Source: Mobula hypostoma (Eukaryota). From it: a stretch of DNA of 64,000 nucleotides. The position numbers and the translations under genes are program-made. The DNA is taken from assembly GCF_963921235.1 (NCBI RefSeq), contig NC_086108.1, forward strand, positions 58,654,001 through 58,718,000, given 5' to 3'. Under the pieces are notes generated by a model. It was not told where the DNA came from, ran no database searches, and saw nothing but the letters and a program-made list of their open reading frames with translations. This document shows positions 26,050-57,719 of the stretch, in pieces; positions within the stretch are counted from its first letter, which is position 1, and each line of letters opens with the position of its first letter.

Positions 26050-29000
26050 ATGGGGCCATTAAAAAAAGAAGTAAGTGGAGCAGCCATTGTTGGTGTGGGC
26101 CAGACGAAGGTTATAAGTACGTAATTTCTAGTAAATCTTTTTTTCTGTTAATACATAGTTAGTGTGCTGAAAATGGGTTTGGAGGTAGTCGTATGTCCTT
26201 TGTATGAGATGTGGGAACACTGGGAAACTTTCAATCTCCTTGATAAATACATCTGCACGAAGGTCACCAAACTGCAGCTCCTCAGAGACTGTGTTAAGGA
26301 ACTGGAGCTACAGCTGGGTGACCTTCAGCTCATATAGGAAAATGAGGAAGTGATAGATAACAGCTGCATTGATGTAGTCACCCCCAAGTTGCAGGAGGCA
26401 GGTACCTGGGTGACAGCCAAGAGAGGGAAAAGGGAATAGGCAGCCAGTGCAGAGTACCCCTGCGGCAGATCCTCTCAATAATAAGCATACCACTTCAGAT
26501 ACTGCTGGGGTGAAGCCGCAGTGACCTGGTCTCTGGCACTGAGTCTGACTCTGCAGCTCAGAAGGGAAGAAGGGAGAAGAGGTGTGAAGTAGTGATAGGC
26601 GATTCCATAGTGAGAGGAGCAGAAAGCTGTTTCTGTGGACGTGAAAGAGACATCTGGATGGTACCTTGCCTCCTGGATGCCAGGATCAGGGAAGTCTTGA
26701 ACCCGATCCAAGACATCTCTCACCCTGGCATCCAGGAGGCAACATAATATCTGGGTGTCTCTTTCATGTCCACAGAAACTGCTTTCTGCTTCGTTAACTA
26801 TAAAATCATATTAATACCAACAATATGGGTAGGAGGTCCTGAAAACATAATATAGGGAGTTAGGCAGAAAGCTGAAAAGCAGGCCCTCCCAAGTAGCAGC
26901 CTTTGGATTGCTGCCTGAGTCACATTCCAGTGAGGATAAGAATAGATATTTTGGCAGATGATCGCATGGTTGAAGAAATGGTGCAGGGAGCAGGGTTTCA
27001 GATCTCTGGATCATTGGGACTTCTTCTGGGTACAAAAAGTAGGGTTTGTCACAACCACGGATTCAGCAGCGCAGCAGATTTGGCAATTGCGCTCGTGAAT
27101 ATGCACGTGTCAGCTAATTATTTTATTGAGATAGTATTTACCTCCATTTGTTCTGTCGTAGTGTTTGTTGAGACTTGGACATGGAGCACAGCAACATTTC
27201 GCTGCCTGTTTGCATTCGGCCTTGCCTGGGAAATAGGACTATCCAGTCAACTGACTCTGAAGACTAAAGGTATTTGTTTTATATTTAGTTCTTTTCAGCC
27301 GCAGTAGGCTTCTTTTCGATTTGAGAGTTTTAGTTAATGGCCCTGTTTGGCCTAGTGTTTATTGTTTTCTTTTCCCAGTAACACTGTTCATATTAAAGTC
27401 TGTGAACCACGGCAGTGTCTCTCACTCCGCACTTGGGCCATATCCAAACCTGATAACAGCAAGTCTTGACCACACGAAGATGGATCCAGCAGAGAGAGGG
27501 CGGCTGACCTTGGCCGTGAGATTCATTGGTCAGAGTGATTCACTGAGGCAACAATGTTCCGTTGAATTCCTATGTATGAACTCTTGTTTCTGTCTGCAGC
27601 ATGACAGCAGGATGGACCCAGCAAAGTTTGAACAGTGACGTTCTGACATTTGCGGATTGAGGAGAGGCTGCCTTTATTCTAAGTGCATATCCTGACTCTG
27701 CATTCCGAGAGTCCTGAGTCTACATTCTAAGCTTCTCTAGTCCCCATTGAGTTTCTCCAGTATCCATTCCAAGCTTTTCAAGTCACAAGGATCCAGGTTC
27801 CCAGCTTCGTGGTCCCATGACTCAGGTCTGGATAACAAATGAGCACTTCAAGCAAGCTTATCAATTGATTCAACAATTCATCATTCCAGTCAATAGTGTA
27901 AACTTTGGAAGAGCCCAACTCCAAAAGCTAATCCCTGGCTGGAGTGTGTGAACACACAAATAAAGTAACCCTGTCAAGAGTATTTTTAACCTCCTGATGA
28001 AAGTCAGGGTACAGTCTGGAAAGATTGAACTTTCATGTCACAAATTAAACAAATCTACAGAGAACCAGCTAGCTTAACGATGAAAGAAACCTTTCTATGC
28101 TGTCTTGATCTGTAAAATTGATTGCCTCTGGAAAAAATTGCGAAAGATAAAACACTGTGAGCAAGACTTGAAAAGGTTCCTTCTGTACGTTTTGGGTTTC
28201 AAGTTTCATGTTGTCAAGGTCTCCCAAAGACTTTTTTCTATGTTCCTAATGTTTTTATTTTTCCGATTGTTTCCAAGGCTTAGTCAATGTGTTTAGGGTT
28301 TTTCAATGTCCTCCCCATCTCCAGTGCTCCCAAGCCTCCCTCTCAGCCCTGCCTGAGCTTTGTTGATTTCACTCGAGGTTCCCTGGTCTCTGAGTCTGTT
28401 GGAGTTCCTAGGTCTCTCAGTCTCTTCCCTGGTCTCTCTGTCTGTTGGGGTTCCCAGGGTCTCTCAGTCTCCCAAGTCTCCCTGCCTCTCAAGTTCCCCA
28501 GGTCTCTTGAGTCTTCCCTGATTCTCGAGTTTTCAGGTCTTCCAGGGCCATCAGCTGCCAGCTCATGGGAGGGGGATCCTGTCGTGACGATATCAGGCCT
28601 GTGCACGGCATCAGAGAACATTGGGCTCTGAAGTTTTTAGAGCATCTGAATTGGTCAATTGTTGTTTAACAATAGTTACTAATGGTTTAAGAGTTCCTTG
28701 TTTTTCCTGAGCAACTTGCTCTTTGGAATGTAGTTTCCTGGTGCTTTCTGTTTAAGTTTATTTTGATAGGCTCAGGGATTTTGTGTTGGTTCTATTGTGG
28801 AAGCAGATGCCCGATAAGCTTCAATCGGAGGGTCCTCACTTTGAGAATGATCCCTCTTTCAGTGTCACTTGGTCGAGCTACCTCTGCAAACGCTCTTGTC
28901 TCTGTCTCTACGTGGAAGTCTTTGGCTCTGATATTGGCAGTGCACACTATGGCACTTATCTACCAGCATCACTGAAGGACATCTTGGACGAATCCCTCAT

Positions 29001-31850
29001 TCGGGACTTCCAGCGGACACTGGTCTGTGGCGCTTCAGAGGTTGCGCTAGAGAGGCGGGCCCTCTCACAACCACGGATTCGGCAGCACAGCAGATTTGGT
29101 AATTGTGCTCATAGATATGCACGTGTCAGCTAATTATTTCGTTCTGATAGTATTTAACTCCATTCATTCTGTCGTAGTGTTTGTCGGGACTTGGACATGG
29201 AACACAGCAACATTTCGCTGCTTGTTTGCATTCGGCCTTGCCTGGGAAATAGGACTATCCAGTCAACTGACTCTGAAGACTAAAGCTATTCGTTTTATTC
29301 TTAGTTGTTCTTTTCAGCTGCAGTGTAAGCTTCGTTTTCCATTTGAGAGTTTTAGTTAATGACCCTGTTTGGCCTAGCATTTATTGTTTTCGTTTCCCTT
29401 TAACACTGTTTGCATTAACATCTGTGAACTACCGACCCGTGTCAGTGTCTCTCACTCCACACTTGGACCATGGTGGCAGGGTTACAGCTGAACCTAAGGG
29501 TGATCAATATCTTTGCAAGCAGGTTTTGTAGATCTGTGGAGGAAGGTTTAAACTAATTTGGCAGGGGGTTGGGAACTGGAGTGACAGGGCTGAGGAATGA
29601 ACTGTTGGATTACAACTAAGCGTAATGTGTAGTGAGACTAAGGAAAGACAGGCAGATGATCGGGCGGAATTGCTGCCAGTGAGATGAGTTAAAGTGTAAC
29701 AGGTTTAGAAGATGTAGAATCCTTGTGGGCAGAGTTAAGAAACTACAAGGGTAAAAAGATCCTGGTGGGAGCTATATACAGGCCTCTGAACGGTAACCAG
29801 GATGTGGGCTATAAAATAAAATGGGAGATAGAAAAGACATGTAAAAAGGACAATGTCATGATAATCATGGGATATTTCAATATTCAGGTAGATTGGGAAA
29901 ACCAGGTTGGTGTTGGATTCCAAGAGAATACCAATAAGCTGGCTTTTTAAGAATGGTTTGTGTTTGAGCTCACTAGGGGAAAGGTAATTCTGGATTAGGT
30001 GCTGTGTAACGAGCCAGATTTGATTAAGGAGTTTAAGGTAAAGGAACCCTTAGGAAGCAGTGATCATAATATGATAGAATTCACCCTGCAGTTTGAGAGA
30101 GAGGAAATGAAGTCAGATGCAAAGGCATTACAGTGGAGTAAAGAGAATTACAAAAGCATAAGAAAAGAGCTGACTAACATTGACTGGAAGGGGACAATAG
30201 CAGGGATGATGGCAGAATAGCAACGGCTGGAGTTTCTGGAGACAATTCAGAAGGCACAGGATAGATACATCAGTCTTCACTGTGGAAGACACTAGCAGAA
30301 TGTCAGAAATTCAAGAATGTCAGGGAACAGAGAAGTGTAATTGATATTAGTAAGGAAAAGATGCTTGGAAACTGAAAGGTCTGAAGGTAGATAAGTCACC
30401 TTGGACCTGATGGACTACACCCCTGAGTTCTGAAAGAGGTAGATGAAGCGATTGTAGAGGCATTCATAATGATCTGTAATGATTCCACGGCACAGGAAAA
30501 TTGCAAATGTCACTCTACTCTTTAAGAAGGAAGGAAATTATAGGCCAGTTGGTACTGGAAACACAAGATAAAATAGGCCAAAATCAGCATGATTTTCTAA
30601 AGGGGAAATCTTGCCTGACAAACCTGTTGGAATTCTTTGAAGAAATAACTGGCAGGATAGACAAAGGAGAGTCAGTGTATGTTGCTTACTTGGATTTTCA
30701 GGAGCCGTTTGACAAGTTGCCACACATGAGGATGTTTGACAAGATCAGAGTCCACAGTATTATAGGAAAGGTACTAGCATGGACAGAAGATTGGCTGACT
30801 GGCAGGAGGTGAAGAGTGGGAATTAAGGAGATCTTCTCTGGTTGGCTGCTGGTGAATCATGGTGTACTGCAGGGGTCAGCACTGGGACTGCTTCTTTTGA
30901 CATCATATGTCAATAATTTGGATGAAGGAATTGATGCCTTTTGTCCAAGTTTGCAGATGATATGATGGTAGGTGAAGTGGCAGCTAATGTTGAGGAAGCA
31001 AAGTGTCTGCAGAAGGAGTTAGACATTTTGGGGGAATGGGCAAATAAGTGACAGATGAAATAGAGTGTAGGGAAGTGTATGGTCATGCATTTTGGTAGAA
31101 GGAATAAAGGCATTGACTATTATGTAAATAGGGAGAAAATTCAAAAATCAGAGGTGCAAAAGGACTTGGGTGTTTTCAAGTAGGATTCACTCAAGGTTAA
31201 TGTGCAGGTTGAATTAGCAGTAAGGAAGGCAATTACAATATTAGCATTCAGTTTGAGAGGATTAGAGTACAAAAACAAGGATGTAATGCTGCGGCTTTAT
31301 AAAGCATTGGTGAGACCACACTTGGAGTCTTGTGAGCAGCTTTGGGCCACTTATCCAAGAAATGATATGCTGGCATCGTAGAAGGTCCAGAAGGGGTTCA
31401 CAAGAATTATCCCAGGATTGAAAAAGTTGACATATGAGGAGCATTTGATAGCTCAGGGCCTGTACTTGCAGGAATTTAGAAGAATGTGGCGGGCGGGGGG
31501 GGGGGGTGGTGGGATCTCATTGAAACCTATTGAATATTGAAATGGCTAGATAGAATGGATGTGGAGAGGATGTTTCCTGTAGTGGGAAGTTTAGGACCAG
31601 ATGGCACAGACTCAGAGAAAAAGAAATCACCAAGCAGGATATTAAACAAATAACTTTTTTGTTGCTTTCATTTAGAACAGAGATGAGAAAAATTTTCTTG
31701 AGCCAGAGGGTGGTATTCGTGGACTTCACTGCCACAGGTGGATGTGCAAGCCAGTTCACTGAGTATATTTAAGGAGGAGATTGATAGATTCTTGATTAAT
31801 CAGGGCATCAAAGGTTACAGGGAGAAGGCAGGGAAATGGGGTTGAGAGGG
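26050..31850 (+). mobile_element. Old, near full-length CR1 LINE (ORF1 zinc finger/leucine zipper/SGNH remnant plus ORF2), split by an LTR element
   Basis: VVCPLYEMWE..YICTKVTKLQLLRDCVKELELQL; VIGDSIVRG; ORF1 end TTTAAACTAA at 29547; ORF2 YRP, SDHN, SCLTNL. Confidence 0.85.
27047..29478 (+). mobile_element. Internally deleted chromoviral (Sushi-like) Gypsy LTR retrotransposon
   Basis: LTRs 27047-27458 and 29063-29478; TSD GGGTT (27042-27046, 29479-29483); gag-like start MDPAE at 27480; chromodomain-like tail DILDESLIRDFQR before a purine tract. Confidence 0.8.
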
Positions 31851-37752: not shown

Positions 37753-39639
37753 TCTAATGATGTGCTGTCATTGGAGAGAATCTAGAGGAGGTTCACGAGG
37801 ATGATTCCAGGAATGAAACGGTTAACATACGAGGAGCATTTGGCAGCTTTAGGCCTGCCTGTACTCAGTGGAATTCAGAAGAATATGGGGGGATCTCATT
37901 GAAACCTACCAAATATTGAAAGGATTAAATATGGTGGATGAGGAGAGGATGTTTCTTATGAGGGTATCCAGAACTAGAGAAACTAGAACAGCCTCAAAAT
38001 TGAGGGGCAACACTTTAGAAGAGATAAGGAGGATTTTTTTTTTAGCCAGAGAGTAGTGAATCTATGGAATGCTCTGCCATAGATTGCAGTGGAGGCCAAG
38101 TCCATGGGTATATTTAAAGTGGGTTCCTGATTGGTCAGGACATTAAAGGATATGGCAAGAAGCAGGTGTATGGGGTTGAATAGGATATGGGATCAGCCAG
38201 GATGGTATGGCGGGGCATACTTTTGGGGCTGAATGGCCTAATTTTGTTCCTATGTCTTAATGTCGTATAATCTAGAATTCTACCTCAGTAGAGATGCTGC
38301 AGAAAGAGACCTTAGTAATAAAACAAAAGGGTAAGTTTTATCAGCTGCAAAAGAAAACATAGAGTGTGACTCAGGAGTTACTCTTTTACATGGTGATTTT
38401 TAATTGCATAATGCCTGGAAACAAGTCATTTGCTAGTGCTATAAAAGGTCATATTGCTGGTGTTCATGATAGTGTAATTCTCACTCTAGTCTATGATTAC
38501 CTCGACGGATGGAGCAAGTTTTGTTGGAATCTGATGATTGCCTTGATTTAGGATGGACACTGGGGTGGGGGGGGGGGTGGGCTTGAACCTAGAACATTAA
38601 GGGCCTTGAACATCAGAGGGTTGGAGGACTTAGTGAGTTAATACCATCTGGATTCTGGATGATAGAAGGGTCAAGGCTTTAAATGTTAGAGGGTTGTGAG
38701 TGAGAGTGGATGACTGGAGAGAGATGATCAGCAAGATGAAGAGGTTGGGGCCTGAAGGACTGAAGGACTTAACTCATAGAAGTCTCAATTCATGAGTATC
38801 CAAACTCATTTTTCTGGGACTGTCCCACAATGATTGCTTCCAGAAAAACTTGTCTAATTCCCCTGAAAAGTTTCAGGAGAAGTAACATGTGGAGAATGAT
38901 GTCATCCTTTGTGTGACCGATACAGAGCTAGTCTCAAAGTTCTAGTACTTCAGAAAATAGAACATTGAATTCCTTGACTGCAGTGAAATGGTCTAGGAAT
39001 AGTCATAACTTGCTTTTTCATTCTGGATAAAGATGACTTTCAATCATTTTCTAATGATTTCATTTCTAAGCTAGCTTCTGTGTTCTGAACTTAGATGGGG
39101 CTTTTGTTGAGTTGTGTGAAGGGCAAAGAACAGAAGCTTCACAGCAGGAGAGGAATGGAGAATTAAAATGATCAACGCAATTTTCCTCAACTGGATCAAA
39201 TGAGGAAATGTGGGAAAGTATAATATTTAGTGTTTTTTTTTGCTCTGTTGTGGAAAATCGCCAGAAATACTATTGCTATTTCTCTTTTAAATTTGGAAAG
39301 ACACTAAATTTAAGAAGTTTAATGGTTCATCAGATAAATATGTCAATTCCTCACATTTCTTTCTTAATTCCTGGTCTCCAGTTGATGTGATTTATTATAT
39401 TTTAGTTGGCCTTGACTTTATCTGGTTCTCCCTTCCTTTCCATTCCTTTTCTGCTGCCTGCTTACATCACATATAATTTCAACAGAAATGACTATTTTCT
39501 AGTTTTCTTAATAAAGCTAAACTTATTCTTTTCTAAAGATGGGAAAAATGCTGGATTTTTAAAATATAAACGAATAACCAGCAAAATTACCATTCCTAAT
39601 GTTGGACCATTTCAAGTTTGAAGACAGGTTGACCTATCT

Positions 39640-40281
39640 GTGTCCCTTAACAACAGGTACTCCTGTTTGAGTACTGTTGGGGGGGACAGCTTACCCGGGG
39701 GAAGCGACAGTGGCCGTGCCTCCGGCACAGAGTCTGGCCCTGTAGCTCAGAAGGGTAGGGCAGGGAAGAGGAGGGCAGTTGTGATAGGGGACTCGATAGT
39801 AAGGGGGTCAGATAGGCGATTCTGTGGACGCAGTCCAGAGACCCGGATGGTAGTTTGCCTCCCTGGTGCCAGGGTCCGGGATATTTCTGATCGTGTCCAA
39901 GATATCCTGAAGTGGGAGGGTGAGGAGCCAGAGGTCGTGGTACATATAGGTACCAATGACATAGGTAGGAAAAGGGATGAGGTCCTGAAAGGAGAATATA
40001 GGGAGCTAGGAAGGGAGTTGAGAAAAAGGACCGCAAAGGTAGTAATCTCGGGATTACTGCCTGTGCCACGCGACAGTGAAAGTAGGAATGCGATGAGGTG
40101 GAGGATAAATGCGTGGCTGAGGGATTGGAGCAGGGGGCAGGGATTCAAGTTTTTGGATCATTGGGACCTCTTTTGGCGCAGGCGTGACCTGTACAAAAAG
40201 GACGGGTTACACTTGAATCCTAGGGGGACCAATATCCTGGCGGGGAGATTAGCGGGGGCTACTGAGGTGACTTTAAACTAG
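39640..40281 (+). CDS. CR1 ORF1p C-terminal part, SGNH/GDSL esterase domain (5'-partial)
   Basis: VIGDSIVRG (block I), PGA, HIGTND (block III), DGLHLN (block V); uninterrupted frame. Confidence 0.9.
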   Translation: MSLNNRYSCLSTVGGDSLPGGSDSGRASGTESGPVAQKGRAGKRRAVVIGDSIVRGSDRRFCGRSPETRMVVCLPGARVRDISDRVQDILKWEGEEPEVVVHIGTNDIGRKRDEVLKGEYRELGRELRKRTAKVVISGLLPVPRDSESRNAMRWRINAWLRDWSRGQGFKFLDHWDLFWRRRDLYKKDGLHLNPRGTNILAGRLAGATEVTLN

Positions 40282-42380
40282 AATGGTTGGGTGGTGGGAA
40301 TCAAATTAAAGAGGCTAGGTGTGTGGAGGTTAGTTCACAACAGAGGGATGGGAACCAGTGCAGAGAGACAGAGGGGTGTAAAGTGAGCATAGAAGCAAAA
40401 AGTACAAAGGAGAAAAGTAAAAGTGGCAGGCCGACTAATCCAGGGCAAGCATTAAAAAGGGCCACTTTTCAACATAATTGTACAAGGGCTAAGAGAGTTG
40501 TAAAAGAGCACCTGAAGGCTTTATGTGTCAATGCAAGGAGCATTCGTAATAAGGTGGATGAATTGAAAGTGCAGATTGTTATTAATGATTATGATATAGT
40601 TGGGATCACAGAGACATGGCTCCAGGGTGACCAGGGATGGGAGCTCAACATTCAGGGATATTCAATATTCAGGAGGGATAGACATGAAGGAAGGGGAGGT
40701 GGGGTGGCGTTGCTGGTTAAAGAAGAGATTAACGCAATAGAAAGGAAGGACATAAACCGGGAAGATGTGGAATCGATATGGGTAGAGCTGCGTAACACTA
40801 AGGGGCAGAAGACGCTGGTGGGAGTTGTGTACAGGCCACCTAACAGTAGTAGTGAGGTCAGAGATGGTATTAAACAGGAAATTAGAAATGTGTGCAATAA
40901 AGGAACAGCAGTTATAATGGGTGACTTCAATCTACATGTAGACTGGGTGAACCAAATTGGTAAAGGTGCTGAGGAAGAGGATTTCTTGGAATGTATGCGG
41001 GATGGTTTTTTGAACCAACATGTCGAGGAACCAACTAGAGAGCAGGCTATTCTGGACTGGGTTTTGAGCAATGAGGAAGGGTTAATTAGCGATCTTGTCG
41101 TGAGAGGCCCCTTGGGTAAGAGTGACCATAATATGGTCGACTTCTTCATTAAGATGGAGAGTGACATAGTTAATTCAGAAGCAAAGGTTCTGAACTTAAA
41201 GAAGGGGAACTTTGAAGGTATGAGACGTGAATTAGCTAAGATAGACTGGCAAATGACACTTAAAGGATTGACAGTGGATATGCAATGGCAAGCATTTATA
41301 GGTTGCATGGATGAACTACAACAATTGTTCATCCCAGTTTGGCAAAAGAATAAATCAAGGAAGGTAGTGCACCCGTGGCTGACAAGAGAAATTAGGGATA
41401 GTATCAATTCCAAAGAAGTAGCATACAAATTAGCCAGAGAAAGTGGCTCACCTGAGGACTGGGAGAAATTCAGAGTTCAGCAGAGGAGGACAAAGGGCTT
41501 AATTAGGAAGGGGAAAAAAGATTATGAGAGAAAACTGGCAGAGAACATAAAAACGGACTGTAAAAGCTTTTATAGATATGTAAAAAGGAAAAGACTGGTA
41601 AAGACAAATGTAGGTCCCCTGCAGACAGAAACAGGTGAATTGATTATGGGGAGCAAGGACATGGCAGACCAATTGAATAATTACTTTGGTTCCGTCTTCA
41701 CTAAGGAGGACACAAATAATCTTCCAGAAATAGTAAGGGACAGAGGGTCCAGTGAGATGGAGGAACTGAGTGAAATACATGTTAGTAGGGAAGTGGTGTT
41801 AGGTAAATTGAAGGGATTGAAGGCAGATAAATCCCCAGGGCCAGATGGTCTGCATCCTAGAGTGCTTAAGGAAGTAGCCCAAGAAATAGTGGATGCATTA
41901 GTGATAATTTTTCAAAACTCGTTAGATTCTGGACTAGTTCCTGAGGATTGGAGGGTGGCTAATGTAACCCCAATTTTTAAAAGAGGAGGGAGAGAGAAAC
42001 CGGGGAATTATAGACCGGTTAGCCTAACGTCGGTGGTGGGGAAACTGCTGGAGTCAGTTATCAAGGATGTGATAACAGCACATTTGGAAAGCGGAGAAAT
42101 GATCGGACAAAGTCAGCATGGATTTGTGAAAGGAAAATCATATCTGACGAATCTCATAGAATTTTTTGAGGATGTAACTAGTAGAGTGGATAGGGGAGAA
42201 CCAGTGGATGTGGTATATTTGGATTTTCAAAAGGCTTTTGACAAGTCCCACATAGGAGATTAGTGTGCAAACTTAAAGCACACGGTATTGGGGGTAAGGT
42301 ATTGGTGTGGGTGGAGAATTGGTTAGCAGACAGGAAGCAAAGAGTGGGAATAAACGGGACCTTTTCAGAATGGCAGGCGG
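40266..42380 (+). pseudogene. CR1 ORF2p (APE endonuclease plus RT N-terminal part), frameshifted near 42245 and truncated
   Basis: NARS, ITETW, YRPP, MGDFN, SDHN, YLDFQKAFDK; 1-nt loss relative to the minus-strand copy. Confidence 0.9.
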
Positions 42381-42644
42381 TGCAGGCTCGAAGGGCCGAA
42401 TGGCCTACTCCTGCACCTATTTTCTATGTTTCTATGTTTCTATACAATCTTCAATTAATTAGCAGATAGAATATTTAAATAACATGGGATCAATCTTAGC
42501 AGTGTGGTTGTCAATATGGTTTTGTATATGCTGCCCGAGTTGTGATTCATCATAAGTATTCAGTCTTCTGAATCTTTAGGATGATCTTATGAATAACGAA
42601 TAAACAAAAAAACCGTGAAATTCAGTTAATGCAGTAATTGATAT

Positions 42645-53395: not shown

Positions 53396-54578
53396 TGGAT
53401 CAAATTGATCCTTACAGACCTCTCTTTGGTTGGTGAAAAACATACTCTTCTGTGTGGTTATCATATTTGAAATGACACTATAAATGATCCAACCTAGGGC
53501 TAGGATTTGTGAATCAAATAATTGCTTAACAAATCTTTAATAAATTACATATACTTCATTAAAATAGATGGAATTTCTGGCCAGATAAGCTTATTGAGCT
53601 ATTATTTATGTTGAAGTGTAACTACTGCAATGAGTAGACAATAGACAATAGACAATAGGTGCAGAAGTAGGCCATTCGGCCCTTCGAGCCATCACTGCCA
53701 TTCACTGTGATCATGGCTGATCATCCACTATCAGTATCCAGTTCCTGCCTTATCCCCATAACCTTTGATTCCACTATATTTAAGAGCTCTATCCATCTCT
53801 TTTTTGAAAGCATCCAGAGAATTGGCCTCCACAGCCTTCTGGGGCAGAGCATTCCATATATCCACCACTCTCTGGGTGAAAAAGTTTTTCCTCAAATCTG
53901 TTCTAAATGGCCTACCCCTTATTCTTAAACTGTGGCCTCTGGTTCTGGACTCACCCATCAGCAGGAACATGCTTCCTGCCTGCAGTGTGTCCAATCCCTT
54001 AATAATCTTATATGTTTCAATAAGATCCCCTCTCAGCCTTCTAAATTCCAGAGTATACAAGCCCAGTCACTCCAATCTTTCGACATATGACAGTCCCGCC
54101 ATCCCGGGAATTAACCTTGTGAACCTACGCTGCACTCCCTCAATAGCAAGAATGTCCTTCCTCAAATTTGGAGACCAAAACTGCACACAGTACTCCAGGT
54201 GTGGTCTCACCAGGGCCCTGTACAGCTGCAGAAGGACCTCTTTGCTCTTATACTCAATTCCCCTTGTTATGAAGGCCAGCATGCCATTAGCTTTCTTCTC
54301 TGCCAGCTGTACTTGCATGCTTGCTTTCAGTGACTGATGTACAAGAACACCTAGATCTCGTTGTGCTTCCCCTTTTCCTAACTTGACTCCATTTAGATCA
54401 TAATCTGCCTTCCTGTTCTTACCACCAAAGTGGATAACCTCACATTTATCCACATTAAACTGCATCTGCCATGCATCTGCCCACTCACCCAGCCTGTCCA
54501 AGTCACCCTGCATTCTCATAACATCCTCCTCACATTTCACACTGCCACCCAGCTTTGTGTCATCGGCAAATTTGCTAA

Positions 54579-57500
54579 TAGAAACATAGAAACATAGAAA
54601 ATAGGTGCAGGAGTAGGCCATTCGGCCCTTCGAGCCTGCACCGCCATTTATTATGATCATGGCTGATCATCCAACTCAGAACCCCGCCCCAGCCTTCCCT
54701 CCATACCCCTTGACCCCTGTAGCCACAAGGGCCATATCTAACTCCCTCTTAAACATAGCCAATGAACTGGCCTCAACAGTTTGCTGTGGCAGAGAATTCC
54801 ACAGATTCACCACTCTCTGTGTGAAGAAGTTTTTCCTAATCTCGGTCCTAAAAGGCTTCCCCTCTATCCTCAAACTGTGACCCCTCGTTCTGGACTTCCC
54901 CAACATCGGGAACAATCTTCCTGCATCTAGCCTGTCCAATCCCTTTAGGATCTTATACGTTTCAATCAGATCCCCCCTCAATCTTCTAAATTCCAACGAG
55001 TACAAGCCCAGTTCATCCAGTCTTTCTTCATATGAAAGTCCTGCCATCCCAGGAATCAATCTGGTGAACCTTCTTTGTACTCCCTCTATGGCAAAGATGT
55101 CTTTCCTCAGATTAGGGGACCAAAACTGCACACAATACTCCAGGTGTGGTCTCACCAAGGCCTTGTACAACTGCAGTAGTACCTCCCTGCTCCTGTACTC
55201 GAATCCTCTCGCTATAAATGCCAGCATACCATTCGCCTTTTTCACCGCCTGCTGTACCTGCATGCCCACTTTCAATGACTGGTGTATAATGACACCCAGG
55301 TCTCGTTGCACCTCCCCTTTTCATCATCGGCCACCATTCAGATAATAATCTGTTTTCCTATTTTTGCCACCAAAGTGGATAACTTCACATTTATCCACAT
55401 TAAATTGCATCTGCCATGAGTTTGCCCACTCACCCAACCTATCCAAGTCACTCTGCATCCTCTTAGCATCCTCCTCACTGCTAACACTGCCGCCCAGCTT
55501 CGTGTCATCCGCAAACTTGGAGATGCTGCATTTAATTCCCTCATCCAAGTCATTAATATATATTGTAAACAAATGGGGTCCCAGCACTGAGCCTTGCGGT
55601 ACCCCACTAGTCACCGCCTGCAATTCTGAAAAGGTCCCGTTTATTCCCACTCTTTGCTTCCTGTCTGCTAACCAATTCTCCACCCACACCAATGCCTTAC
55701 CCCCAATACCGTGTGCTTTAAGTTTGCACACTAATCTACTGTGTGGGACCTTGTCAAAAGCCTTTTGAAAATCCAAATATACCACATCCACTGGTTCTCC
55801 CCTATCCACTCTAATAGTTACATCCTCAAAAAATTCTATGAGATTCGTCAGACATGATTTTCCTTTCACAAATCCATGCTGACTTTGTCCGATCATTTCT
55901 CCGCTTTCCAAATGTGCTTTTATCACATCCTTGATAACTGACTCCAGCAGTTTCCCCACCACCGACGTTAGGCTAACCGGTCTATAATTCCCCGGTTTCT
56001 CTCTCCCTCCTTTTTTAAAAATTGGGGTTACATTAGCCACCCTCCAATCCTCAGGAACTAGTCCAGAATCTAACGAGTTTTGAAAAATTATCACTAATGC
56101 ATCCACTATTTCTTGGGCTACTTCCTTAAGCACTCTAGGATGCAGACCATCTGGCCCTGGGGATTTATCTGCCTTCAATCCCTTCAATTTACCTAACACC
56201 ACTTCCCTACTAACATGTATTTCACTCAGTTCCTCCATCTCACTGGACCCTCTGTCCCTTACTATTTCTGGAAGATTATTTATGTCCTCCTTAGTGAAGA
56301 CAGAACCAAAGTAATTATTCAATTGGTCTGCCATGTCCTTGCTCCCCATAATCAATTCACCTGTTTCTGTCTGCAGGGGACCTACATTTGTCTTTACCAG
56401 TCTTTTCCTTTTTACATATCTATAAAAGCTTTTACAGTCCGTTTTTATGTTCCCTGCCAGTTTTCTCTCATAATCTTTTTTCCCCTTCCTAATTAAGCCC
56501 TTTGTCCTCCTCTGCTGAACTCTGAATTTCTCCCAGTCCTCAGGTGAGCCACTTTCTCTGGCTAATTTGTATGCTACTTCTTTGGAATTGATACTATCCC
56601 TAATTTCTCTTGTCAGCCATGGGTGCACTACCTTCCTTGATTTATTCTTTTGCCAAACTGGGATGAACAATTGTTGTAGTTCATCCATGCAACCTATAAA
56701 TGCTTGCCATTGCATATCCACCGTCAATCCTTTAAGTGTCATTTGCCAGTCTATCTTAGCTAATTCACGTCTCATACCTTCAAAGTTACCCCTCTTTAAA
56801 TTCAGAACCTTTGTTTCTGAATTAACTATGTCACTCTCCATATTAATGAAGAATTCCACCATATTATGGTCACTCTTACCCAAGGGGCCTCTCACGACAA
56901 GATCGCTAATTAACCCTTCCTCATTGCTCAAAACCCAGTCCAGAATAACCTGCTCTCTAGCTGGTTCCTCGACATGTTGGTTCAAAAAACCATCCCGCAT
57001 ACATTCCAAGAAATCCTCTTCCTCAGCACCTTTACCAATTTGGTTCACCCAGTCTACATGTAGATTGAAGTCACCCATTATAACTGCTGTTCCTTTATTG
57101 CACACATTTCTAATTTCCTGTTTAATACCATCTCCGACCTCACTACTACTGTTAGGTGGCCTGTACACAACTTCCACCAGCGTCTTCTGCCCCTTAGTGT
57201 TACGCAGCTCTACCCATATCGATTCCACATCTTCCCGGCTTATGTCCTTCCTTTCTATTGCGTTAATCTCTTCTTTAACCAGCAACGCCACCCCACCTCC
57301 CCTTCCTTCATGTCTATCCCTCCTGAATATTGAATATCCCTGAATGTTGAGCTCCCATCCCTGGTCACCCTGGAGCCATGTCTCTGTGATCCCAACTATA
57401 TCATAATCATTAATAACAATCTGCACTTTCAATTCATCCACCTTATTACGAATGCTCCTTGCATTGACACATAAAGCCTTCAGGCGCTCTTTTACAACTC

Positions 57501-57719
57501 TCTTAGCCCTTGTACAATTATGTTGAAAAGTGGCCCTTTTTAATGCTTGCCCTGGATTAGTCGGCCTGCCACTTTTACTTTTCTCCTTTGTACTTTTTGC
57601 TTCTACGCTCACTTTACACCCCTCTGTCTCTCTGCACTGGTTCCCATCCCTCTGTTGTGAACTAACCTCCTCACGCCTAGCCTCTTTAATTTGATTCCCA
57701 CCCCCCAACCATTCTAGTT
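54579..57719 (-). mobile_element. Young CR1 LINE, truncated exactly at the ORF1/ORF2 junction
   Basis: Near-identical to 40276-42380 and to 7131-8223; (TTTCTATG)n tail. Confidence 0.95.
54676..57708 (-). pseudogene. Essentially complete CR1 ORF2p (APE plus RT, about 1010 codons) broken only by in-frame TGA TGA at 55321-55326
   Basis: ORFs 55324-57708 and 54676-55311 are in the same frame; the sister copy has TTA GGA at that position. Confidence 0.9.

Follow-up and report, generated by a model that had tools for sequence, protein, structure and literature searches.

The window analysed here, a stretch of 64,000 nucleotides from Mobula hypostoma (contig NC_086108.1, positions 58,654,001 to 58,718,000), carries at 39638-42442 a copy of a CR1 long interspersed element (LINE) with two open reading frames (ORFs). 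Pfam searches revealed Lipase_GDSL_2 (PF13472, 1.6e-17) in ORF1, and Exo_endo_phos (2.3e-12) and RVT_1 (5.3e-08) in ORF2. The ORF1 of the family matches the solved LINE ORF1 esterase (PDB 4c1b) at 2.5e-28. Short tandem repeats at the 3' end are a mark of CR1, and 8-nt repeats without poly(A) close the window copy as well as two others, L210 and L218. The element is an ordinary esterase-type CR1 LINE, with an SGNH esterase in ORF1, an apurinic/apyrimidinic-type endonuclease (APE) and a reverse transcriptase (RT) in ORF2, and 3' tandem repeats. It thereby resembles the canonical esterase CR1s, as far as the available text of PMC13343379 and PMC3905857, together with PDB 4c1b, describes them. The window copy itself is dead: 5' truncation within ORF1 has removed the zinc-finger/coiled-coil N-terminus, the -1 frame is broken near 42240, and about 1 kb of the RT region is deleted.

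Layout of the ORF1-ORF2 junction

ORF1 of the window copy ends ACT TTA AAC TAG, with the heptamer TTTAAAC in the X XXY YYZ phase directly before the stop codon (Table 1). The ORF2 frame is the -1 frame, which opens at 40266, two codons 5' of the heptamer, and extends to 42263. It overlaps ORF1 by 16 nt, and the heptamer lies inside the overlap. The first ATG of this frame is at 40917, inside the endonuclease and 215 codons past the heptamer. The motifs NARS (40530), ETW (40611) and YRPP (40830), which we take to carry the endonuclease catalytic residues, all precede it, so a protein begun at this ATG would miss half of the endonuclease domain. The initial annotation had read the junction in the same way, including the heptamer, the -1 frame open across it, the late AUG (about 210 codons in) and the out-of-frame AUG at 40283, and the sequence bears it out in each of these points.

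From the comparisons given below we consider it highly probable that the conserved junction of esterase-type CR1 LINEs makes an ORF1-ORF2 fusion by -1 ribosomal frameshifting. In this mechanism, a ribosome with UUA in the P site and AAC in the A site would have the stop codon next. The majority of ribosomes would terminate and release ORF1p, and a minority would slip back one base at the heptamer and go on to read the linker, the endonuclease and the RT, giving an ORF1-linker-endonuclease-RT fusion. If the slip precedes decoding of the A site, the trans-frame peptide would read ...EVTL/KLEW. That slippage occurs, with some efficiency and stimulator, is what we infer from the layout, the letter-for-letter conservation, the -1 frame that is open to the RT in full-length copies, and the subfamilies without AUG.

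Table 1. Features of the CR1 copy and its junction, with the junction of a second CR1 (window positions)
Feature	Position	Strand	Remark
CR1 ORF1 C-terminal part, SGNH/GDSL esterase domain	39638..40281	+	Pfam PF13472; likeness to full-length copy L210 begins at 39638
TGA bounding the -1 frame upstream	40263..40265	+	sequence reading
Slippery heptamer U_UUA_AAC	40272..40278	+	encodes the Leu-Asn end of ORF1; read as Phe-Lys-Leu in the -1 frame
-1-frame linker, heptamer to endonuclease	40272..40529	+	86 codons, no stop, no Met
ORF1 stop TAG, directly 3' of the heptamer	40279..40281	+	TAA or TGA in other lineages
+1-frame ATG	40283..40285	+	out of the ORF2 frame; found in 1 of 16 lineages
G-rich motif GGGGG-NN-GGG, candidate stimulator	40289..40298	+	10-nt spacer from the heptamer; private T at 40292 here
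ORF2: APE endonuclease and start of RT	40530..42263	+	frame break near 42240 in the window copy
3' tail with 8-nt terminal repeats	42376..42442	+	blastn against L210; about 1 kb of the RT region is deleted just before it
Junction of a second, older CR1 subfamily	29547..29573	+	same heptamer, TAA, GGGGG-TT-GGG equally spaced, no AUG past the stop

Conservation of the heptamer

Within the genome (G000), the heptamer followed by TAG was present in all 30 closest family copies examined (of 40 scored; one of the 30 is the window's own). In the full-length copy L210, ORF1 has 311 aa, and the -1 frame, counted from the heptamer, is open for 1014 codons and includes the RT, with the endonuclease at codon 86, the first Met at codon 215 and [YF]ADD at codon 735. 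L212, from another subfamily, has a -1 frame of 982 codons, with the endonuclease at codon 50 and the first Met at codon 104. Further subfamilies were gathered with divergent queries, and their junctions were placed by ORF1 anchors ending short of the final eight residues; this worked for 184 of 209 loci and gave 165 unique junctions. TTTAAAC was the majority in all six G000 clusters of three or more near copies that were analysed in detail (23/24, 25/30, 18/19, 10/12, 3/3 and 20/34), and the misses were mostly one-base anchor offsets and decay. An older group (L031-L060) keeps every heptamer column in 26-30 of 30 copies.

A pattern made of the heptamer, a stop-like triplet, seven free bases and G5-N2-G3 had 18,149 exact matches in the genome, and the reversed control had 1. 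The seven free spacer bases vary widely among these matches. A strict esterase-tail test was passed by 23 of 30 pattern loci, and the remaining 7 resemble decayed tails. Variants of the heptamer that are silent in ORF1 are scattered across spacer types and rare, about as frequent as decay would predict: 882 differ in the first base, 112 have CTN for Leu and 525 have AAT for Asn, these counts being unscaled to neutral mutation rates. Some copies (G000:C1:1375962, C1:2534034 and others among the first-base variants) read TAG in the -1 frame just 5' of the G-run, and these represent either recurrent decay or a non-autonomous subfamily.

A protein search found 165 ORF1 homologues. Their lineages are ones known to carry CR1. 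Among the 120 listed, whose named sources include rays, sharks, coelacanth, frogs, turtles, lizards, a snake and a hummingbird, 82 end Leu-Asn. A native tail, in which 20-32 aa separate the esterase D-G-x-H motif from the C-terminus, was present in 75 of the 120; the other 45, in which the motif was unmatched or the tail out of range, were set aside. All 75 native-tailed ORF1s end in Asn and 72 of them in Leu-Asn, with variable residues from -3 to -8 (the commonest residue in 20-28 of 75). The residue before Leu-Asn is Glu, Lys, Gln, Met or Trp in 2 of the 82 proteins, versus 36 and 35 of 82 at the two preceding positions. This avoidance fits a kept heptamer, because these five residues have no U-ending codon.

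DNA of further lineages came from host DNA in metagenome contigs (38 loci) and from genome contigs (1 locus). Their ORF1s are most similar to proteins of bird and reptile type, and the label "bird/reptile-type" is given by that similarity. Sixteen of the 39 loci reach the junction (23 stop short), and TTTAAAC occupies the predicted place, or lies next to it, in 13 of the 16; in L093, L094, L096 and L105 the -1 frame is open from Phe-Lys-Leu to the endonuclease. Eight representatives from G000 and eight from contigs were then compared as 16 lineages, with an upstream identity of 0.37-0.80 (median 0.48). The initial annotation had named such a comparison of CR1 junctions as one that could speak against frameshifting, and it found all seven heptamer positions invariant in 16/16, from rays to bird/reptile-type loci. 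The third positions of upstream ORF1 codons have a mean identity of 0.41, and the stop itself varies (TAG in 9, TAA in 6, TGA in 1). The terminal Leu is always TTA, a codon that accounts for 27 of 217 ORF1 Leu codons, and conserved Leu and Gly residues upstream use three codons each. In 14 lineages the linkers span 39-110 codons, with 0 stops in the -1 frame versus 67 and 74 in the other frames, and 5 of the 14 have no Met before the endonuclease.

Traces of the -1 frame were also found among predicted proteins. Among 120 ORF2 proteins predicted in other organisms, 7 have Phe-Lys-Leu upstream of the endonuclease, most gene calls starting at a later Met. P0121 and P0287 contain the esterase, Phe-Lys-Leu, linker and endonuclease within one frame; they are natural indel copies or gene models and no proof of slippage. 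A search for longer fused ORF1-ORF2 proteins gave 4 matches, one of them with both domains, which is weak either way. Viral contigs held neither relatives nor a motif match, and prokaryote genome contigs held 1 short contaminant-like locus that ends 5' of the junction. CR1 sequence was also seen inside bacterial records (P0019, a protein labelled Pseudomonas, and L129, a Providencia contig), likely as host DNA contamination.

The strongest argument that slipperiness, and not the peptide, is under selection comes from class switching among distant ORF1s, as judged from residues rather than codons. A profile search of 50%-identity representatives gave 150 proteins, 92 of them with native-looking tails, of which 43 end Leu-Asn and 49 otherwise. 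The ends of 16 of these 49 would fit another slippery heptamer, namely G_GGA_AAC (11), A_AAA_AAC (3) or G_GGU_UUU (2); the same holds for 29 of 490 tripeptides inside the proteins (Fisher p 2e-7). These ends are Gly-Asn, Lys-Asn and Gly-Phe, and they stay tied to the stop though the tail length varies (23-28 aa). The three heptamers and U_UUA_AAC are among the shiftiest for mammalian ribosomes (PMC5009743, available text). DNA for the Gly-Asn, Lys-Asn and Gly-Phe lineages was absent from the best G000 matches, whose loci were not inspected individually. In a further distant lineage, the ORF1 P0199 ends Tyr-Leu-Asn, and the related ORF2 calls P0283 and P0301 have Phe-Lys-Leu and then Gln-Gly-Gly 5' of the endonuclease, which amounts to a two-frame signature of the same letters. 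In six other distant esterase ORF1s (P0146, P0147, P0168, P0200, P0201 and P0244), the last residues are Phe-Phe-x, Gly-Phe-x or Phe-Phe-Arg-Ser, and these endings may mark a U-rich shift site that precedes the stop by one or two codons.

The window holds other CR1 copies. The older CR1 whose junction is given in Table 1 has an ORF1 that is seemingly split within 26400-29700: an esterase piece lies at about 26500-27040, with an internal inversion at 26601-26807, and the C-terminal tail and junction lie at about 29470-29570. A duplicated segment of 400 nt (27049-27441 and 29065-29471) flanks both borders of the gap. A minus-strand copy at 54576-57719, of the same subfamily as the copy at 39638-42442 and 98.8% identical to L210, has its 5' end within the heptamer. 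Upstream of it lie 114 nt of RT-coding sequence from a more diverged copy, and the two resemble the parts of a chimera fused where a few bases are shared. At least 10 more CR1-type ORF2 fragments are spread over both strands and coincide with blocks of strong G-skew. The motif, sought as a 10-mer with one mismatch, was not enriched within the window (5 found versus 6.4 expected), so the case for it rests on junction conservation and not on rarity.

The G-rich motif downstream of the heptamer

A G-tract, GGTTGGGTGGTGGG, occupies 40285-40298 of the window and starts 6 nt past the heptamer, as the initial annotation stated, but the conserved part starts at 10 nt. The T at 40292 occurs in 1 of 30 family copies, the window's own, whereas 28 of the 30 have GGTTGGGGGGTGGG here and the remaining one lacks one G. 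In all 16 lineages, G5 occupies positions 11-15 after the heptamer; two free bases follow, and then a GGG whose positions are kept in 15, 16 and 14 of the 16. Two of the five G positions are -1-frame third positions and are fixed, yet GGG makes up 91 of 284 ORF2 Gly codons. The constraint on the G-run therefore looks like one at the RNA level. Wobble variants of the G-run number 1,480 in G000.

A G-quadruplex stimulator in the form first proposed gains no support from these data. Four tracts of G3 were found in 0 of 16 lineages, the conserved motif yields three tracts at most, and the spacer is 10 nt; the four-tract pattern of the window relied on its private T and on a GG (from a Trp codon) that is missing from many lineages. 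A looser pattern of four G2 tracts within 45 nt of the stop is present in 11 of 16 lineages versus 2 of 36 ORF2 windows, and ViennaRNA placed a quadruplex in the minimum free energy structure for 7 of 16. Engineered quadruplexes behind UUUAAAC share with CR1 the heptamer and the 3' G-rich RNA, but they require four G3 tracts, work best at a spacer of 6-8 nt and reach about 7% at best (PMC3919603, in part), whereas CR1 has G5-N2-G3 at 10 nt. Interrupted GU/GA repeats gave no stimulation without ligand, according to the accessible part of PMC12710887.

We also looked for a folded stimulator. Classical -1 frameshift sites usually have a stem-loop or pseudoknot 5-9 nt downstream. No conserved local 3' fold was found in the 16 lineages (folding z-scores -2.1 to +1.2, pseudoknots not being modelled explicitly); the region 3' of the junction is C-poor, and pairing is weak in most lineages. 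No long-range pairing partner was shared by 12 longer copies, in which the best duplex sites differ among subfamilies and many lie upstream in ORF1. An Rfam scan gave one chance match only (E 0.34).

If frameshifting occurs, the candidate we favour, at somewhat under even chances, is a linear G5-N2-G3 element that would act in the mRNA entry channel, with a protein or the ribosome binding it. The arterivirus nsp2 site offers a model, in which a short linear motif acts from about 11 nt downstream of the slip site without RNA structure and nsp1-beta and a poly(C)-binding protein stimulate; a nearby stop can also help -1 shifting, as in one umbravirus (both from the available text of PMC5009743). 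The CR1 motif begins at the 11th nucleotide and is G-rich, unlike the C-rich arterivirus signal; the likeness is one of layout only, and a CR1 binding protein is hypothetical. It is rather unlikely that the heptamer and the adjacent stop suffice and the G-run is kept for another reason, and a two-tier G-quadruplex appears slightly less likely again; an RNA structure that escaped detection would be a surprise. The full proposal, in which esterase-type CR1s in cartilaginous fish, in birds and in lineages between and beyond them produce a Gag-Pol-like fusion with a linear G5-N2-G3 stimulator, no folded RNA, and a host G-run-binding protein, ORF1p or the ribosome as reader, is put forward tentatively. 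In that case G5-N2-G3 would be the G-rich counterpart of the arterivirus C-rich signal, and might act as a switch on transposition for the host or the element.

Competing explanations and biological meaning

Several points weigh against frameshifting. The 16 representatives were hand-picked post hoc as the least decayed and are kin by descent, so their 16/16 are not independent trials, and the 14 linker lineages were selected for open frames, so the 0 stops are partly by choice. The terminal Leu extends an i+4 hydrophobic stripe (-14, -10, -6, -2) and may be kept for the esterase fold as well. Among distant ORF1s, the Gly-Asn, Lys-Asn and Gly-Phe ends are known from protein only, in related proteins, and 33 of the 49 tails that do not end Leu-Asn match no canonical heptamer. 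G-run wobble changes are commoner in the genome than each of the three unscaled heptamer counts. Neither a conserved 3' fold nor a shared pairing partner was detected. Some vertebrate CR1s have lost ORF1 (PMC13343379, in part), which means that fusion to ORF1 is not indispensable to ORF2 in every case. Finally, an in-frame AUG lies 9-12 nt from the heptamer start in 6 of 16 lineages, two of them as a SART1-type UAAUG, and AUG reinitiation is therefore open to these lineages.

Reinitiation was accordingly weighed as an alternative. Here ribosomes that terminate at ORF1 would begin ORF2 anew at an AUG close by or at a non-AUG codon, the route taken by SART1 and L1, and the role of the motif would lie in termination or restart. 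Non-AUG codons are tolerated when L1 ribosomes restart at ORF2, and the nearby AUG stands 2 nt past the stop in the four lineages that lack UAAUG among the six. SART1 uses UAAUG with downstream structure, and SART1/L1 share with CR1 a bicistronic LINE RNA and a down-regulated ORF2 (PMC3894237, available portion). Most CR1 lineages, however, lack UAAUG; two of the five lineages with no AUG before the endonuclease have full-length intact frames, the window subfamily has no stop-adjacent AUG in the ORF2 frame, and no near-cognate start is common to the spacers of the 16 lineages. Nor would reinitiation account for the invariant U preceding Leu, the exclusive use of TTA or the slippery-class swaps, and we regard it as improbable. 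Both the heptamer and UAAUG in the ORF2 frame are seen in the L130/L211 subfamily and in L119, and four bird/reptile-type loci have the in-frame AUG 2 nt past the stop; two routes to ORF2 may coexist in such AUG-bearing lineages.

The other alternatives are less likely still. A separate ORF2 RNA could arise by splicing at an AG after the heptamer, or from an internal promoter whose TATA-like box would be TTTAAA; TAG supplies the AG in 9 of 16 lineages, and the minus-strand copy at 54576-57719 starts inside the heptamer. But the AG is not kept, the stop being TAA or TGA in 7 of 16, no pyrimidine tract lies upstream, the RNA would still need an AUG that several subfamilies lack, and the phase of ORF1 would be irrelevant. 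None of the 15 joints listed (of 17) in contigs of four sequencing runs ends at the junction, a weak point in that the RNA status of these runs is guessed. This explanation is very improbable, and the remaining two are even more so. If protein constraint alone fixed the letters, Leu-Asn would complete the esterase helix and ORF2 would need Phe-Lys-Leu and Gly-x-Gly across the overlap. The place of the terminal Leu on the helix stripe and the recurrence of Gly-x-Gly in the -1 frame agree with this, but if Phe-Lys-Leu is needed, the -1 frame must already be translated starting at the heptamer. In addition, Gly-Asn, Lys-Asn or Gly-Phe stands in place of Leu-Asn in distant ORF1s whose tails differ in length, and the third positions of the G-run are fixed. 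Polymerase slippage at TTTAAA, a short homopolymer pair within the overlap, could add a base in some transcripts and fuse the frames in RNA. Runs of three are short for it, and new insertions would inherit the extra base, yet 30/30 family copies and 18,149 genome matches keep the plain heptamer, and no indel falls at 40272-40278 among the 12 indel rows listed of 18. The frameshift proposed by the initial annotation, by contrast, gains strong comparative support from the fixed heptamer, the apparent class swaps and the lack of a usable AUG in several intact subfamilies. We regard the signal as real and family-wide, and programmed -1 frameshifting as its likely function.

The arrangement has parallels in other systems. 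Retroviral gag-pol and coronavirus 1a-1b have the same U_UUA_AAC in the same phase, with a structural ORF followed by a -1 enzyme ORF (PMC5009743, in excerpt); CR1 differs in that no conserved pseudoknot or stem-loop was detected 5-9 nt downstream, and in having no protease. With no protease in the element, a CR1 fusion would stay whole unless cleaved by the host. The likely purpose would be, as with Gag-Pol, a fixed ratio of high ORF1p to low ORF2p and an enzyme tethered to its own particle. Frameshifting at -1 is not new to non-LTR (lacking long terminal repeats) elements, since a review states that ORF2 of the Dictyostelium L1-clade elements TRE5-A and TRE3-A requires it (PMC5911963, seen in part); these differ from CR1 in clade and ORF1 type, and no heptamer, stimulator or assay is given for them there. 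A 2013 commentary called LINE ORF2 initiation an open question and named SART1 stop-start, reinitiation, an internal ribosome entry site and 2A as routes (PMC3894237). The word "frameshift" is absent from the available text of PMC13343379 and PMC3905857, where CR1 ORF2 translation is not addressed, and the main text of the former, a 2026 survey of vertebrate CR1s, has no match for frameshift, slippery or overlap. Nor is a CR1 frameshift signal mentioned in the accessible parts of PMC5009743, PMC11835228, PMC2734521, PMC9004415 and PMC4255032 or of those two papers. Our full-text literature search found none described, older subscription papers, repeat-database notes and supplements being outside its scope; chicken and turtle CR1 descriptions of 1997-2001 or Repbase/Dfam notes may mention an overlap or frameshift. 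The linear G-rich stimulator is possibly new.

Elements of the CR1 group dominate among the retrotransposons of most vertebrates, according to the available text of PMC13343379. If the frameshift is real, CR1 ORF2 is mis-annotated as a free, Met-started protein, and the real product would be a fusion, of about 1,320 aa in the window subfamily (311 + 1014 codons, less the overlap). Constructs for CR1 biochemistry and retrotransposition should then retain the junction, and vertebrate genomes would carry tens of thousands of natural frameshift cassettes, with a stimulator that may be of a new kind.

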